This document shows, piece by piece, positions 5,211 to 10,885 of a stretch of DNA of 30,252 nucleotides (its first letter is position 1; each line of letters begins with the position of its first letter). Under the pieces are notes generated by a model, which saw only the letters and a program-made list of their open reading frames with translations, had not been told where the DNA came from and did not search any database. The position numbers were made by a program, and so were the translations under genes. This stretch comes from a virus (Duplodnaviria; Caudoviricetes): positions 1-30,252 of the IMG/VR virus record IMGVR_UViG_3300007983_000014. One strand, given 5' to 3'.

Positions 5211-5618
5211 ATGAGCATCGGAGTAACCGGGGTCTCAATAGCCCCAGAGCTAAACCTGAGCTTTCACAAGGGATCTCTGAGTTGCTTTGATCGGCTATGC
5301 TGCTGCTCCACTCCAGACGCTAGCTCAGTCACGCTTGACGATCAGCTTTACATAGATCACAAGCTCCGAGTCATACGTTGGCAAGACAAAAAGGAAGTGT
5401 GCGGAATAGACTCGACCCATGCACGCCTCAAGTTAATCGTGGTTGACCGTCTCCATCGTGTCAGCCCTTCTCCATTCATAGATGCGCACGCCGCCTTCGA
5501 AATGTCAAGCATCGAGTGGGACGAGCCGCAGCCCATCAAGGCTTCAGACCTGAAGAGGCTAAGCAAGTGCGTTGCCAAAATCAAAGAGTCAATTTTGCAG
5601 AATTCCACTATTATTTGA
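5211..5618 (+). CDS. Hypothetical protein with a Cys cluster (SCFDRLCCC)
   Basis: 135-aa ORF with GAGG SD. Confidence 0.65.
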   Translation: MSIGVTGVSIAPELNLSFHKGSLSCFDRLCCCSTPDASSVTLDDQLYIDHKLRVIRWQDKKEVCGIDSTHARLKLIVVDRLHRVSPSPFIDAHAAFEMSSIEWDEPQPIKASDLKRLSKCVAKIKESILQNSTII

Positions 5619-5643
5619 TGCTACTGCATGCTATGATTAACGC

Positions 5644-5718
5644 ACTCCTTCAGTCGTGTTGTTACATTTATCGTTGAAGTGAGTAGGGCCGATCGGGTTA
5701 TCCCGGTTGGCCTTTTTT
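5644..5718 (+). ncRNA. Candidate small RNA 1 (antisense-like to the early-operon leader at 9802-9828)
   Basis: Extended -10 TGcTATGAT (5629-5637), no clear -35. 5' hairpin, then terminator GGCCGATCGGG/CCCGGTTGGCC + T6 (5687-5718). The terminator could also serve the upstream gene. Confidence 0.6.
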
Positions 5719-5754
5719 GTTTACAGCTACGCAAGTTGGTGCCATGATGAGTTG

Positions 5755-5838
5755 ATCAGTAACCTGGGTAGTTGTTGACGCATCCCCATCAGTTCGCTGG
5801 TGGGCCGCCACTAAGTCAGTCTTAGTGGCTTTTTTTTT
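5755..5838 (+). ncRNA. Candidate small RNA 2
   Basis: TTTACA(5720)-17 nt-CATGAT(5743) with TG extension. UUCG hairpin 5785-5804. Terminator GCCACTAAG/CTTAGTGGC + T9 (5807-5838). Confidence 0.65.
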
Positions 5839-5850
5839 GTGATCAACTCA

Positions 5851-5961
5851 GAAAATGAGAAAGCCCAGTGCAGCAAACACTGAGCTTCTTAATAGCTGAT
5901 ACTTGGGATATCAGCGGACTGATACTTTGGATATCAGAGGACAGATACTTGACATGTTCTG
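5851..5961 (-). ncRNA. Candidate small RNA 3 with tandem hairpin repeats
   Basis: Minus-strand TTGACT(5995-5990)-17 nt-TATCTT(5972-5967). Repeated hairpins, then terminator-like stem 5861-5887 and a pyrimidine tail. Confidence 0.6.
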
Positions 5962-5963
5962 TC
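5896..5963. repeat. Three 23-nt-period repeats; two are CTGATA-N7-TATCAG palindromes
   Basis: CTGATACTTGGGATATCAG (5896-5914) and CTGATACTTTGGATATCAG (5919-5937). Core GATACTT at 5898, 5921 and 5944. Confidence 0.9.
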
Positions 5964-6069
5964 TTAAAGATATCCAAACGCACGTCTGAAGTCAAGCAGA
6001 AGCAATAAGCGTGCACGATATATGTCAGTTTTTTTTGAATTAAATGACGCGCTTGGATAGAGTGCGGTT

Positions 6070-6149
6070 AGATTTTCCGCTCTCCAAAGTGAAGTGGTTG
6101 ATTGGCCCTGGTGGAAGTTGCGTGAGCCTTGGCGGGCTCACGCTTTTTT
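6070..6149 (+). ncRNA. Candidate small RNA 4
   Basis: TTGAAT(6035)-17 nt-TAGAGT(6058). Terminator GCGTGAGCC/GGCTCACGC + T6 (6120-6149). No ORF inside. Confidence 0.6.
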
Positions 6150-6212
6150 CTCCATCAAAAACAAGTGAATAATTTCATTGGATTTAACGCAAAAGTGTCA
6201 ACTTATAGTTGA

Positions 6213-6240
6213 ATGCAACATAACATGAGTTATCCGACTA
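6213..6240 (-). other. dif-like XerC/XerD recombination site (11-6-11)
   Basis: Minus strand TAGTCGGATAA-CTCATG-TTATGTTGCAT. The right arm is 9/11 identical to the canonical XerD arm TTATGTTAAAT, and the left arm ends in the ATAA core of XerC arms. Confidence 0.7.
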
Positions 6241-6373
6241 AAGTATTATTTTCAAGCGCTATCAACTTAAGTATTCTATTGGCTTCCAATCTAGTAACTT
6301 TTAGTTTACGCATTAAAAAAGAAATACTCAACTTGCCGAACTCAATTGCTAGTTTGCGTGCTTGCTCATCCAT
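6230..6373 (-). CDS. Stand-alone FtsK gamma-domain-like protein (47 aa)
   Basis: EQARKLAIEFGKLSISFLMRKLKVTRLEANRIL aligns without gaps to E. coli FtsK-gamma [33 protein letters not shown] (recalled sequence; 11/33 identical). ATG 6373 preferred over track start 6448. Confidence 0.65.
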   Translation of the reverse strand: MDEQARKLAIEFGKLSISFLMRKLKVTRLEANRILKLIALENNTLVG

Positions 6374-6431
6374 CGTATCCGAGCGCTTAAATTTTGTCAC
6401 TGTCCAGGTCACTCTTGTTATTGCTGAAGGC

Positions 6432-6466
6432 CTACCAATTGCTACCAATATCTACCAAATTGGTAG
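6432..6466. repeat. Phased heptamer array: CTACCAA x3 direct plus one inverted
   Basis: CTACCAA at 6432, 6442 and 6452 (10-bp period); TTGGTAG at 6460-6466. Confidence 0.85.
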
Positions 6467-7114
6467 CTAGTGATTCAGTGACATGTGATAGGCAGTGTCC
6501 ACAATCTGGCCATGATTGACAGATGCATTTAAAGCTGCTGTGTCATTCAACGCGCCGATTGACTCATTGAAGATATGCTTTGCACCATCCATAACAAGGC
6601 CAGTCTTTGCAGCATTGCCGAAGTCACCTGCACCTGTAATGTAGTCAGCAGCAATGGCCGTTACTGTCCCTGTTACATCAGGGTGACACACAGACTCTAC
6701 ACGGGATTGCATGTTATCAAGATTGTTGCACACGGATTGATAGGACGCGTTTCTCTCGTTCTCTATCGTTACACGGTCCCAAGAGACAGAATTGCCGTAT
6801 TCAATAGCCTTCTCCCTTGTCTCCATCACCTCAAGAAATTTGTCTAATGAGCCTGTGGGGTTCTCGGGCTTAGTGCCGGGAACGTACTCAAGGCCTGGAC
6901 GCTTTGCTATTATCCTAAGAGGCATCGTTACGAGAGGATTACCAGCTTTAGCCATCTCACCAAGCGTATGAATTACACCATATGGGCCAGTTTTTCCAAC
7001 AACCATCGCGACGCGAGATACAATATCAGCTAGGACTTTTCCTGGACCCAGGCCGAAGCCTGTATCAATCCCTAAGCCAATCGGGCCCATGAACATCGCC
7101 GCGCAGCACATCAT
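6467..7114 (-). CDS. Hypothetical protein (~215 aa) with a Gly-rich hydrophobic N-terminus
   Basis: GGAG SD precedes ATG 7114. The track extension to 7324 crosses AT-rich, intergenic-looking DNA. Confidence 0.6.
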   Translation of the reverse strand: MMCCAAMFMGPIGLGIDTGFGLGPGKVLADIVSRVAMVVGKTGPYGVIHTLGEMAKAGNPLVTMPLRIIAKRPGLEYVPGTKPENPTGSLDKFLEVMETREKAIEYGNSVSWDRVTIENERNASYQSVCNNLDNMQSRVESVCHPDVTGTVTAIAADYITGAGDFGNAAKTGLVMDGAKHIFNESIGALNDTAALNASVNHGQIVDTAYHMSLNH

Positions 7115-7292
7115 TGACGGCTCCAATAAAAAATAATCAGCGAAAAACAGAACAACCGAAAGAATGACTCCCCCGGAAACAAGAGCCGGTGAAAGAACCA
7201 GACTAAATAAATGTAGGCGATGTAAATTAATAGAGTTTGCATTTTTAAGCACCATGTAAGACACGTCCTTGCTGTTCATAAGATTGTTGAAA

Positions 7293-8066
7293 TTACATGG
7301 CAATCTCAAATTGATCACCATCATGAATCACACGCGGGCGATTCTTTTGCCTATAGTTGTAAACGTCCACTAGCTGTATGACGTACTCACGAGCAGTGCT
7401 ACAGTATTTAATTGTATATGGGGCGTTTTCAATCTGCTTCAGCATTCGACCGTGGGAAATAAATGGGTTGGTGAAGATGTTCTTGCAGGCGCGATGAAAG
7501 GATAGCTGGTTGTAAATCTTGACGGGCTTGTAGTTTCGCGCTCTCATCGAATCCTTCAGGTCTAGAAAGCTTTTGATAGCACGGTTTTTTTCCTCTGAGA
7601 TCTCAAACTTGAAATCCCCGTTTTTAAATGCATGCATATAAGAAACATTTGCGCTATCAATCCAGTACAGCGCATTAACAATTTTCATATTATTGTCGTT
7701 ACAGTATGCCTTGAGAGCGATATAATCTTGCTTCCCATGAGAGACCCAATATTTCAAATAATCAGTTGTTTGCCAGGTCCTTCGTGAAGTGTTGAAGTCG
7801 ATCATCTTTTTCGGGGTGTATGCCTCATCGATGACATACCAGATTGTCTCCCCAAGATTCTTAGCAGCTGCAAGGCGATGCTGGCCATCAACAACTTCCA
7901 TCCTTGGATTAACAATGATGGGATTGATATGAAGATCATTGTAGTCCGCCATCATCATCTCAAGCCGTTTCACGTGTGACTTAGAGACATTCCTATTGTC
8001 ACCGCGCAACTTGAAAATGTCATACTTCCGCGTAGCTAGGATCTGTTTTGAAGTCTGTTCCATCAT
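7293..8066 (-). CDS. ParB/Srx-like N-terminal domain protein
   Basis: NRNVSKSHVKRL...NPIIVN....VVDGQHRLAAA motif. Confidence 0.8.
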   Translation of the reverse strand: MMEQTSKQILATRKYDIFKLRGDNRNVSKSHVKRLEMMMADYNDLHINPIIVNPRMEVVDGQHRLAAAKNLGETIWYVIDEAYTPKKMIDFNTSRRTWQTTDYLKYWVSHGKQDYIALKAYCNDNNMKIVNALYWIDSANVSYMHAFKNGDFKFEISEEKNRAIKSFLDLKDSMRARNYKPVKIYNQLSFHRACKNIFTNPFISHGRMLKQIENAPYTIKYCSTAREYVIQLVDVYNYRQKNRPRVIHDGDQFEIAM

Positions 8067-8074
8067 TCTTCCTG

Positions 8075-8932
8075 TTAGTCTGTAAGTGTTATTCTCCAGC
8101 TCTGAGAGCTTGAGGCTCTATAGTCGTCTAGATTGACGTGCATTAGCTCAGGCACCTTAGAGTAGTCGACAGAGCCCTTGCGGATCACCTTGCGGACTTT
8201 TGTCATTGCTCCCGCGCTGCTGTGTCCATCTGACAGTTTTATTAAATATTTGCGTGCCTCTAACTCCTCGTCTCGAGCCTTCTCCAGTTTCTGTTTTGCT
8301 GAGTAGAACCTTTGTTCAGCCATGAAAAACTCAAGGTCCTTCCTCTGAACATAGTCGCGGTCTGTGAGTTCTGGAGGGACTCCTTCAACCATGGATCTGT
8401 AAAACACTGATTCTCTGTTAATCATTTCCTTGATAAAGTTATCGTCCCTGCAGACTTCAACAAGATGGCGGCTTTGCTCAGAGAAAGACCAGTAATGTAA
8501 CATGTCCAATCCAGTGACTGCAAGTTGATGCTGCAATTGTGGGAAATATTTCTCAGGGACTTTCTTGCGCATAGCAATCGCGTGGTCTTTTTCGCCTGGG
8601 CACTTGATTTCAACAATCATCCTGTTTTTAAGATCGTACCCATCTAGGCTTGCCATCATCCAGGCGTGATGCGGAGAGAAGCAGACGCGGGGAGCCGCGT
8701 TATTGCCCGTGTACTCATTATAAGCTAGCAGCGCAGCCTCTTCTAGATCATGCCCTCTCTGCTGGTAGCGGTTCGTTTTCTCATCCGGAACAATCCCGCT
8801 CTTCAGTTGCCACAGCTCATATGGTGTCTTCCAAGGCGATACCCCCATAATTATGGGAGCATCGCTTGCGCCGATCTTGGTCTTTCGTAGCTCAAGCCAT
8901 TCAGGCGTGTTCTGCTTTACCATCGTTCTCAT
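8075..8932 (-). CDS. YqaJ-like viral recombinase exonuclease (lambda-exonuclease family)
   Basis: QNTPEWLELRKTKIGASDA, RGHDLEE, ASLDG, VEIKCP and YFPQLQHQLAV motifs. Confidence 0.92.
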   Translation of the reverse strand: MRTMVKQNTPEWLELRKTKIGASDAPIIMGVSPWKTPYELWQLKSGIVPDEKTNRYQQRGHDLEEAALLAYNEYTGNNAAPRVCFSPHHAWMMASLDGYDLKNRMIVEIKCPGEKDHAIAMRKKVPEKYFPQLQHQLAVTGLDMLHYWSFSEQSRHLVEVCRDDNFIKEMINRESVFYRSMVEGVPPELTDRDYVQRKDLEFFMAEQRFYSAKQKLEKARDEELEARKYLIKLSDGHSSAGAMTKVRKVIRKGSVDYSKVPELMHVNLDDYRASSSQSWRITLTD

Positions 8933-9494
8933 CCTTAATCAACTGTTCAATCCACTGAATTGCACCATCAAAGCGACTTGCTGGAATTGTTTCAAGAGAA
9001 CCCCCACAGCTCTCGAAAACAAATTTTCGAATACTTTCATGTTGCTTGATCAGGAATTCGATCTGCGCGACTTGATCAGGAGTGATATATTTAGAGGGCT
9101 TTTTGATATCTTTCGTCGCTGCGCTAGCTGCATTGCCGTCGTCGTCTTCAGCAGGGATACCAGCGATTGCCATAAGGCTATATCGCCGATAGTACGTGAT
9201 TGCGCTACCCAGCTTTTGAGGATCTGCAATGTCAGGGAGTACCATCTTGCTCTGAATCGACTCACCCGAGCAGTGTAGAAGAGTCGTCACTAGTGCTTGT
9301 CGGAACCCGTCCAACAGCTCCATTGTCTGAGTGACGGCTAAACCGTTTTCAGCAAAGGGAACGCGGATAGCTTCAAAGACGCTGGCTAGGTCCGCGTAGC
9401 TACTCTTGAAGAATGGGTTCTTCTTATCTTTCTTTGCCCCCTGCATCTTTGACTGTGCTTTACATAGTGCGATTGCTATATTGTCTGCTTCCAC
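8901..9494 (-). CDS. erf: ERF-family single-strand annealing protein
   Basis: KNPFFKSSYADL and GSAITYYRRYSL...EDDDGNAA motifs. GTG 9494 has a well-spaced GGAG SD (track start 9500). Confidence 0.9.
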   Translation of the reverse strand: MEADNIAIALCKAQSKMQGAKKDKKNPFFKSSYADLASVFEAIRVPFAENGLAVTQTMELLDGFRQALVTTLLHCSGESIQSKMVLPDIADPQKLGSAITYYRRYSLMAIAGIPAEDDDGNAASAATKDIKKPSKYITPDQVAQIEFLIKQHESIRKFVFESCGGSLETIPASRFDGAIQWIEQLIKDENDGKAEHA

Positions 9495-9503
9495 CTTCAA
9501 CTC

Positions 9504-9800
9504 CTATGACGTTACTTGTTTGAATTCTGCGTGAAGCACATCATGCACTGGCCTACATAGCGTGTCGATCTTGGCATGCTTCTTGGGAACATTAATTCCG
9601 TACTGGTCTGCTAAGTCTTCTAGCGCCATCTCAAGCACAGAGATGTTTCCAGTTGCGTATACCGCTTCAATCAAATCATAGATTGCGTCGTTGCACTTTC
9701 CAACGTGCGGAACCGAATCTATTGAGACATAACCCCTGTCAAAAAGGATGTCCTCGTTGTCTAGGTCGCTTAATTCGTATCTATCGTGAAATGCTGTCAT
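9504..9800 (-). CDS. Hypothetical acidic protein, first gene of the leftward early operon
   Basis: 98 aa; GGAGG SD at 9810-9806. Confidence 0.75.
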   Translation of the reverse strand: MTAFHDRYELSDLDNEDILFDRGYVSIDSVPHVGKCNDAIYDLIEAVYATGNISVLEMALEDLADQYGINVPKKHAKIDTLCRPVHDVLHAEFKQVTS

Positions 9801-10568: not shown

Positions 10569-10658
10569 ATGGCAACCAAGGTGAAGATGAAGGACCTTGT
10601 CCCTGAAGAGTTCAAGAAATCAATCAATAAAGGCCAAGCCGGCTTGTTTGTGAATTAA
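10569..10658 (+). CDS. 29-aa small ORF not in the track (MATKVKMKDLVPEEFKKSINKGQAGLFVN)
   Basis: Its TAA overlaps the next ATG (TAATG at 10656-10660). Confidence 0.45.
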   Translation: MATKVKMKDLVPEEFKKSINKGQAGLFVN

Positions 10659-10885
10659 TGGAGGATACTATGTACTACGACAAATTAAGGGCGCTTCAGA
10701 CGCTAGTCAAAGAGATTGGCGGATTACAAGAGGGGTTCCGGTCTGATCTGTACGTTTTGACAGATACGGGAGACGTCAACAAGTCAGCTATGCGACGTTG
10801 TCGCAAGCGAACTACGGAACTGGTGCGGATGTATCGCGATTTCCGGCGCAATTCTATAGAGCTAGAGAAGACGCCTAAAGACTAG
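10658..10885 (+). CDS. Histone H1-like Hc1-family core-domain protein
   Basis: NKSAMRRCRKRTTELVRMYRDFRRNSIELEK matches the Hc1 pattern NKAAAQRVRTESIKLEKIAKVYRKESIKAEK (recalled). Alternative start ATG 10670 has a GGAGG SD. Confidence 0.65.
   Translation: MEDTMYYDKLRALQTLVKEIGGLQEGFRSDLYVLTDTGDVNKSAMRRCRKRTTELVRMYRDFRRNSIELEKTPKD

Follow-up and report, generated by a model that had tools for sequence, protein, structure and literature searches.

Gene content of the window and its probable host

The window, that is the whole stretch of 30,252 nucleotides analysed here, is a linear contig that is about 80% complete. Its genes include those for a P22-like portal, a terminase, ERF, YqaJ, RusA and Hc1. 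At the end of a leftward run of genes lies a small open reading frame (ORF) whose product resembles the gamma domain of FtsK, and its last codons overlap a dif-like site.

6213..6240, minus strand: dif-like site of Chlamydiota/Planctomycetota type, likely attP, 28 bp (site pattern and PWM)
6213..6223, minus strand: XerD-side arm TTATGTTGCAT, the same as the chlamydial chromosomal arm (the arm of the search pattern)
6224..6229, minus strand: central hexamer CTCATG
6230..6240, minus strand: XerC-side arm TAGTCGGATAA, which is also the final codons and stop of the gamma gene
6230..6373, minus strand: stand-alone FtsK-gamma-like gene, product P0001, 47 aa (Pfam, host-only profile, PDB profile search, fold)
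6374..6448, minus strand: possible 5' extension with a TTG start at 6448, giving a 72-aa form
6467..9800, minus strand: leftward run upstream of the gamma gene, with a 98-aa ORF, ERF annealase, YqaJ exonuclease, a ParB-like gene and a 285-aa ORF
10658..10885, plus strand: histone H1-like Hc1 gene (PF07432, E=1.2e-6, above cut-off)

The leftward run at 6467..9800, in which no integrase was found, has the gamma gene as its final ORF. Directly upstream of it, the 285-aa ORF (6467-7324) matches no Pfam or PHROG family and starts with a long hydrophobic, glycine-rich N-terminal stretch. On the other side, about 590 bp (5620-6210) carry no convincing gene beyond the site and contain 5 terminator-like hairpins where 0.8 are expected; Rfam returned no match across 5500-6600.

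Hc1 is a chlamydial protein, and its gene is a clue to a chlamydial host. A phage-encoded Hc1 could also affect nucleoid condensation in that host. Relatives of the window portal occur in 5 of 400 chlamydial genomes, the Chlamydiota being the only phylum searched. An environmental chlamydial host is likely for the window phage and its kin.

A dif-like site of the chlamydial chromosomal type

The original prediction described a 28-bp site of dif geometry, one arm of which would double as the end of an ORF. Both statements were borne out: the site reads TAGTCGGATAA-CTCATG-TTATGTTGCAT at 6240-6213 on the minus strand, in an 11-6-11 layout, and the arm that we take, by analogy with known dif geometry, to be the XerC side supplies the last codons and stop of the ORF. 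The pattern GTCNGATAA-N6-TTATGTTGCAT has one exact match in the window and none in 100 shuffles. Likewise, the site obtains a PWM score of 26.9 against 9.9 for the runner-up in the window and peak scores of 8.5-18.3 for 30 shuffled windows, and it is by this measure the sole strong dif-like sequence in the window. Its D arm shows 0 mismatches to the chlamydial pattern, while the XerC-side arm shows 3 relative to the chlamydial consensus and a single one relative to the host variant of loci L147 and L153. The hexamer differs at one position from another host variant (L150), and as a centre it is absent from 291 chlamydial genomes searched with the pattern GTCNGATAAC-N5-TTATGT.

Among the at least 120 loci listed, the site pattern matches mainly chromosomes of Planctomycetota and Chlamydiota. 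At 23 chlamydial loci the site takes the form ACGTCTGATAA-Tnnnnn-TTATGTTGCAT, with arms partly dictated by the search pattern and variable centres, and host centres differ widely from one chlamydial locus to another. A single chromosomal match was found per searched chromosome set in G287, G254, G304 and G152, and none in G397. A dif site had been predicted in 14 of 14 Chlamydiae (PMC3025954). These data support the assignment of the window site to the chromosomal dif type of Chlamydiota and Planctomycetota; XerC and XerD are predicted to bind it. Most sites of the set pair a canonical arm with a degenerate one. About 1000 viral contig stretches match a relaxed dif pattern, 120 of which were viewed.

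A wingless FtsK-gamma miniprotein

The gamma ORF runs from an ATG at 6373 to a TAA at 6230, so that its stop directly precedes the central hexamer. The choice of start codon is not fixed: an in-frame TTG at 6448 gives 72 aa, and the frame measures 73 aa from stop to stop. A weak sigma-70-like match is located at 6400-6372, and no clear ribosome-binding site was recognized for the gene.

FtsK_gamma (PF09397) is the single Pfam family matched by P0001 (E=1.8e-4), with a score of 21.6 bits that is below the gathering cut-off of 30.6. A profile built solely from 30 chlamydial FtsK gamma domains put the P0001 frame at the top of the 709 frames of the window (E=8.8e-5, against 0.54 for the runner-up), and a profile built solely from seven phage miniproteins placed FtsK chains at PDB ranks 1-6 (best E=0.0034). 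The top cluster of P0001 in Atlas stood at 0.90. The likeness to FtsK gamma first read from the letters was recovered by Pfam, by the host-only profile and by the PDB profile search. As a single-sequence query the 47-aa protein recovered itself alone and obtained nothing useful from the PDB, the 72-aa form had no match in viral contigs, and PHROGs held no family for the 47-aa protein; the family was reached via the site scan first, then by profile.

Structure prediction and comparison with the PDB, which had been proposed as a check, yielded a three-helix gamma-like model (pLDDT 78; helices 2-12, 17-24 and 28-46; no wing strands) whose best matches are the FtsK gamma chains 5dcf_A (Z 6.3, rmsd 1.7, 43 aligned) and 2ve8_A (Z 5.8, rmsd 2.2, 44 aligned). 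Generic helix-turn-helix chains tie with these two (Z 5.0-5.7), so the fold of P0001 is by itself not decisive. P0001 stops at position 49 of the 63 of the Pfam gamma profile, and the beta wing that follows helix 3 is missing. This missing wing, also part of the original prediction, holds for the P0001 model, but some members of the family have C-terminal extensions that may be wings. No FtsK motor family was found among the window ORFs scanned with Pfam, and P0001 is unattached to a motor. Sequence comparison confirms the 47-aa protein as a wingless FtsK-gamma homolog.

Recurrence of the gene-site pair in diverged phages

The site scan uncovered a locus (L001) with a 50-aa gamma-like gene whose stop is 2 bases short of the site. 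Profiles then led to 27 small intact proteins of 47-144 aa sharing the core G-x-x-S-x-x-Y-L-M-R-K-L-K. Against the Pfam gamma model, 8 of 29 family members score at E<=0.01, the best of them at 2.7e-5, and no member attains the cut-off. The pair of gene and site, the co-occurrence of which in related phages bears directly on the proposed module, recurs at a distance of at most 85 bp in 13 diverged phages beyond the window, duplicates having been merged before counting (L348=L356=L363, L001=L247=L445, L361=L362, L360=L366 and L266=L446=L447).

Ten loci were identified through their protein or terminase and not through the site; in nine of these the top-scoring dif-PWM site of the entire 3-20 kb locus was located within 50 bp of the gamma gene, compared with 7 of 515 other small ORFs. 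The exception is L367, a weak match (E=1.1e-4) with no site. Two of the nine linked sites score just 14.8 and 15.4, inside the range of the shuffled windows, and are thus counted by position, not by score. The computed probability of such linkage, 2e-13, overstates independence because the loci are relatives. Another weak match, L010 (E=1.5e-3), is 861 bp away from its site and was not scored as a pair. As a control, gamma domains were found in 397 cultured-phage records; in the 8 sampled, gamma is embedded in frames of 165-781 aa, several of which are pieces of host ftsK, and no dif core occurs within 600 bp, whereas 12 of 13 gamma loci have a dif core within 100 bp of the gene.

Three geometries were distinguished: the gene ends in the C arm, the gene ends in the D arm, or the site is upstream of the gene. 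The idea that the XerC arm points toward the gene in every case was rejected. The gamma loci share little DNA, and the module is found among tail genes, between RusA and the terminase, following the portal or as the last part of a leftward operon. Together, the three geometries, the differing genome positions and the low DNA likeness argue that gene and site move as a unit. Nearly every gamma gene has a site, while the use of dif extends beyond the carriers of the gamma gene.

Two motif scans yielded nothing beyond L001 anew, a locus identical to L266 and three loci devoid of gamma. In 36 chlamydial genomes a second Pfam-gamma match was present, but these matches were weak and located in unrelated frames or pieces of ftsK, and none of the six such regions inspected was a gamma-plus-site module. 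Variants of the arrangement were also seen. At one locus (L015:881-1413, genome G410), a pair of gamma-like genes in tandem, both extended at the C-terminus, is separated by 85 bp from a single site. At another (L364:740-1312), an ORF with an HNH-like motif, recognized by eye, begins inside the site; a homolog of this ORF adjoins the module at G403:17552-17911. The ORF may help the module move.

Recombinases and integration at dif

The statement that the genome carries no recognisable integrase or resolvase stands for the 43 and 42 ORFs scanned with Pfam and PHROGs and for a search with PF00239, but it concerns a contig that is linear and incomplete. Tyrosine recombinases (PF00589) were detected in none of 19 records, six of which are gamma-bearing genomes with a completeness of 90% or more, against 14 of 14 in the control. 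Neither the PF00239 resolvase nor ParA (AAA_31) was detected in any of 13 records, and the absence of ParA argues against a plasmid lifestyle. The six near-complete gamma-bearing genomes show no match to a tyrosine integrase, the PF00239 resolvase or ParA. Among the plasmids of PLSDB there was no match to P0010 at E<=1.

A contig from a chlamydial MAG (G287:C1) contains a related prophage of 35.7 kb flanked by two dif copies in direct orientation, at 41986 and 77697. Both copies have the centre TGTATG, the left one with a canonical C arm and the right one with a canonical D arm, and host genes are located outside the dif-bounded prophage. Two dif copies of equal centre with host genes outside are the footprint expected of Xer integration, which supports the view that one related tailed phage integrates at dif. 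The contig has no PF00589 match, and the prophage has no gamma match. This prophage (G287:C1:41986-77724; L418-L420) is of the tailed, P22-portal type, with a terminase apparently split by an insertion, and would need FtsK or another, unrecognised activator.

Prophage copies between hybrid dif sites, which the original prediction had suggested looking for, are thus represented by this relative devoid of the gamma gene, but by no gamma-bearing element: in the loci checked, phage genes lie on both sides of the site, and no integrated gamma-bearing prophage was found. Contigs of the source run showed no junction at the window site, and a stand-alone gamma match was obtained in G397 alone of 401 genomes, in both searches. 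Gamma matches are also absent from the dif-bearing G254:C19, G152:C102, G414 and G415. Since several dif-bearing phages, including the integrated G287 prophage, do without it, the gene is not required in the group. G254:C19 and G152:C102 are free phage contigs with centres unlike the chromosomal site of their own MAG. The proviruses of G414 and G415 have a canonical dif, yet they represent a different type of chlamydial provirus; in these (L398-L403), dif is found mid-provirus beside ParA-like and large primase-like genes, labelled by eye. Two dif-like sites in the same orientation about 790 bp apart (L464:1496-1523 and 2289-2316, from the chlamydial G057:C10) possibly form a small dif module.

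Proposed mechanism

In E. coli, isolated gamma was reported to activate recombination by XerCD at dif in vivo as well as in vitro, with random-collision products, although free gamma is active only at high concentration (PMC3130261). Such random-collision products suit an intermolecular reaction. We consider the chances about even that the free phage gamma activates host XerD and thereby drives XerC/XerD-mediated integration and excision at chromosomal dif, making the septal FtsK motor unneeded. We infer expression, XerD binding and activation, and integration, not monomer resolution, as the purpose. The phage DNA would circularise, and host XerC and XerD would occupy both the phage site and chromosomal dif. 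Free gamma would then trigger XerD, and the crossover would insert the phage; excision would be the reverse of this reaction. Because most sites have a canonical arm opposite a degenerate one, recombination with host dif would restore a single good dif. In the loci examined, the gamma core is located outside the centre and would therefore survive the crossover. As for the origin of the module, the balance is equally poised on the proposal that tailed phages of Chlamydiota captured the gamma domain of host FtsK, trimmed it to an activator of about 50 residues and carry it with a dif mimic as a portable lysogeny module of about 200 bp that replaces an integrase, which would constitute a third kind of Xer activation factor.

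The protein might instead activate XerD solely to resolve multimers of circular phage DNA, produced by ERF/YqaJ recombination, at the phage's own site and with no integration. ERF and YqaJ are indeed encoded in the run directly upstream of the gamma gene, the site is intact between phage genes in every gamma-bearing locus checked, and phage and chromosomal centres differ in G254 and G152, just as the window centre is missing from the 291 genomes. However, host centres are highly variable and those compared belong to putative hosts, and ParA was detected in none of 13 records. Moreover, free gamma yields catenated products and Xer-gamma fusions fail at chromosome dimer resolution, according to the E. 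coli work (PMC3130261), and a relative is integrated at dif in G287. We regard multimer resolution as the sole function as unlikely.

Residues at the XerD interface and KOPS positions

In the E. coli XerD-gamma crystal, FtsK is reported to make contact through Q1288, R1289, R1292, I1293, G1294 and N1296, R1289 being foremost, and the nine residues 1289-1297 fused to XerC are enough for activation (PMC5052618). P0001 R22 and K25 align to E. coli FtsK R1289 and R1292. The host residue is matched at R1289 in 22, at K1290 in 26, at L1291 in 22 and at K1292 in 21 of the 27 phage proteins, counts that must be read with a host set chosen by means of a motif in which these very residues are fixed (matched by 30 of 34 loci), with 27 proteins that are not independent and with a profile search biased toward the conserved core. 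Of the contacts G1294 and N1296, the first is kept in 0 and the second in 2 of the 27, G1294 being changed to T or S in 25, and positions 1295-1297, 1299, 1300 and 1303 on the surface of helix 3 vary freely. The family thus appears to keep the basic residues that touch XerD in E. coli while helix 3 varies. According to the same study, the XerD contacts of gamma are a subset of its DNA contacts (PMC5052618), so the kept basic residues are compatible with DNA binding too.

The chlamydial side of this interface also differs. Chlamydial XerD (L431-L434 comparison) is devoid of E183, E184 and Y187, key contacts in E. coli, and consequently the E. coli interface is not transferable residue by residue. 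The residues involved in KOPS recognition in E. coli were reported as N1296, R1300 and E1303 (PMC2533119); chlamydial FtsK has A, S and D at these positions. These differences suggest another FtsK-XerD interface and another polar motif in Chlamydiota. The replacement of the GYNRAAR helix by TRLEANR noted in the original prediction is real when compared with E. coli and Pseudomonas, but chlamydial FtsK itself reads GYARAAS, so part of the helix difference is due to host lineage. The accompanying argument for loss of KOPS binding is only partly valid, and is weakened by host FtsK that is also without N1296, R1300 and E1303 and by the C-terminal extensions of members that may be winged.

A gamma-derived helix-turn-helix protein could also act at or near the site as a regulator or a site-bending accessory factor, XerD not being activated. 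The shared surface of gamma for DNA and XerD (PMC5052618) is in keeping with this, as are the tie of generic helix-turn-helix chains in the fold search (Z 5.0-5.7 vs 6.3 and 5.8) and the commonness of phage gamma domains (397 records). Yet the presumed recognition helix is hypervariable although the adjoining site is conserved, and a dif core is near the gene in the gamma loci but not in the sampled controls, where gamma is part of longer frames (12/13 within 100 bp vs 0/8 controls within 600 bp), making such a role rather unlikely.

As a decoy or directionality factor, the protein would bind XerD and block or bias FtsK-triggered recombination, for example shielding a dif-bounded prophage from excision at division. 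A prophage between two dif copies, such as that of G287, would be open to FtsK-driven excision, and the family keeps part of the XerD contact patch with G1294 and N1296 changed. Nevertheless, E. coli gamma alone, even as nine residues on XerC, is reported to activate and not to inhibit (PMC5052618, PMC3130261), the known attP-adjacent factors are activators, and the stable G287 prophage is without such a gene; we find the decoy role distinctly unlikely. Finally, it is highly improbable that the gene is a functionless remnant of host ftsK or a chance frame hitchhiking with the site, as its weak scores and want of a clear ribosome-binding site might suggest, given 27 intact small proteins with a conserved core in diverged phages and given that no ftsK-like ORF lies beside the chromosomal dif loci scanned, which makes co-capture from the chromosome unlikely.

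Comparison with known Xer-exploiting elements

Activation of XerD by the free gamma, if it takes place, would show phages using naturally the laboratory shortcut of 2011, in which isolated gamma uncouples XerCD from cell division. The family amounts to a mutagenesis of gamma carried out by nature, in which the activation of XerD may come apart from the reading of DNA although both depend on one surface, and it points to the FtsK-XerD interface of chlamydiae, whose XerD is without the E. coli contact residues. It also hints at how tailed phages of chlamydiae may become lysogenic, and offers a candidate integration module of very small size for a phylum in which genetic tools are poor.

The gene-site module appears to be real, recurrent and undescribed. 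The original prediction knew of no report of this arrangement, and our search of the literature, with most subscription journals outside its coverage, likewise found no description of a stand-alone gamma gene next to a dif mimic. The IMEX phages described in three reports are filamentous, double jelly-roll or microviral (PMC12715192; bioRxiv 10.64898/2026.02.19.706829; PMC9226527).

With FtsK gamma itself (PF09397; 5dcf, 2ve8), the phage protein shares the three-helix core, the S-x-x-x-L-[MQ]-R-K-L-K motif and basic residues equivalent to R1289 and R1292. Unlike it, the phage protein is stand-alone, 47 aa long and motorless, has no wing strands in its model, has the GY[AN]R turn replaced and scores below the cut-off. 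Gamma domains borne by cultured phages, such as RdgC-gamma fusions and the "FtsK-like" genes of mycobacteriophages, have in common with the module that they are phage-borne; their long frames and the lack of a nearby dif core in the 8 sampled set them apart.

Vibrio dif-type double jelly-roll prophages and CTX-I inoviruses carry a lysogeny module made up of a dif-like attP and an adjacent activator gene, which the candidate module of the window phage resembles, and their dif mimics are full-length or one-armed (PMC12715192). These Vibrio prophages, as described there, are non-tailed, encode an XafT/P15-type protein and reside in gammaproteobacterial hosts, unlike the window phage.

Close parallels are TLCphi, with xafT and attP, and VGJphi, with xafV: all are integrase-less phages with a dif-like site, an adjoining small gene of varying orientation and degenerate arms (PMC6744903, PMC9226527). 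The xafT and xafV genes are reported to adjoin attP (bioRxiv 10.64898/2026.06.12.731946), and the gamma gene is immediately beside its putative attP at 9 of the 10 loci found without the site. The orientation of DUF3653 genes relative to dif differs by subclass, and XafT is described as an XRE-type helix-turn-helix joined to DUF3653, without sequence homology to FtsK (PMC6744903). In contrast, the window protein, a candidate activator, is an FtsK-gamma homolog in which Pfam detects no DUF3653, and it is carried by tailed phages of the P22-portal type whose host is likely chlamydial. The mobile-element Xer activators known so far, XafT and XafV, are not FtsK homologs; by analogy, the phage gamma module would act like them without belonging to their family.
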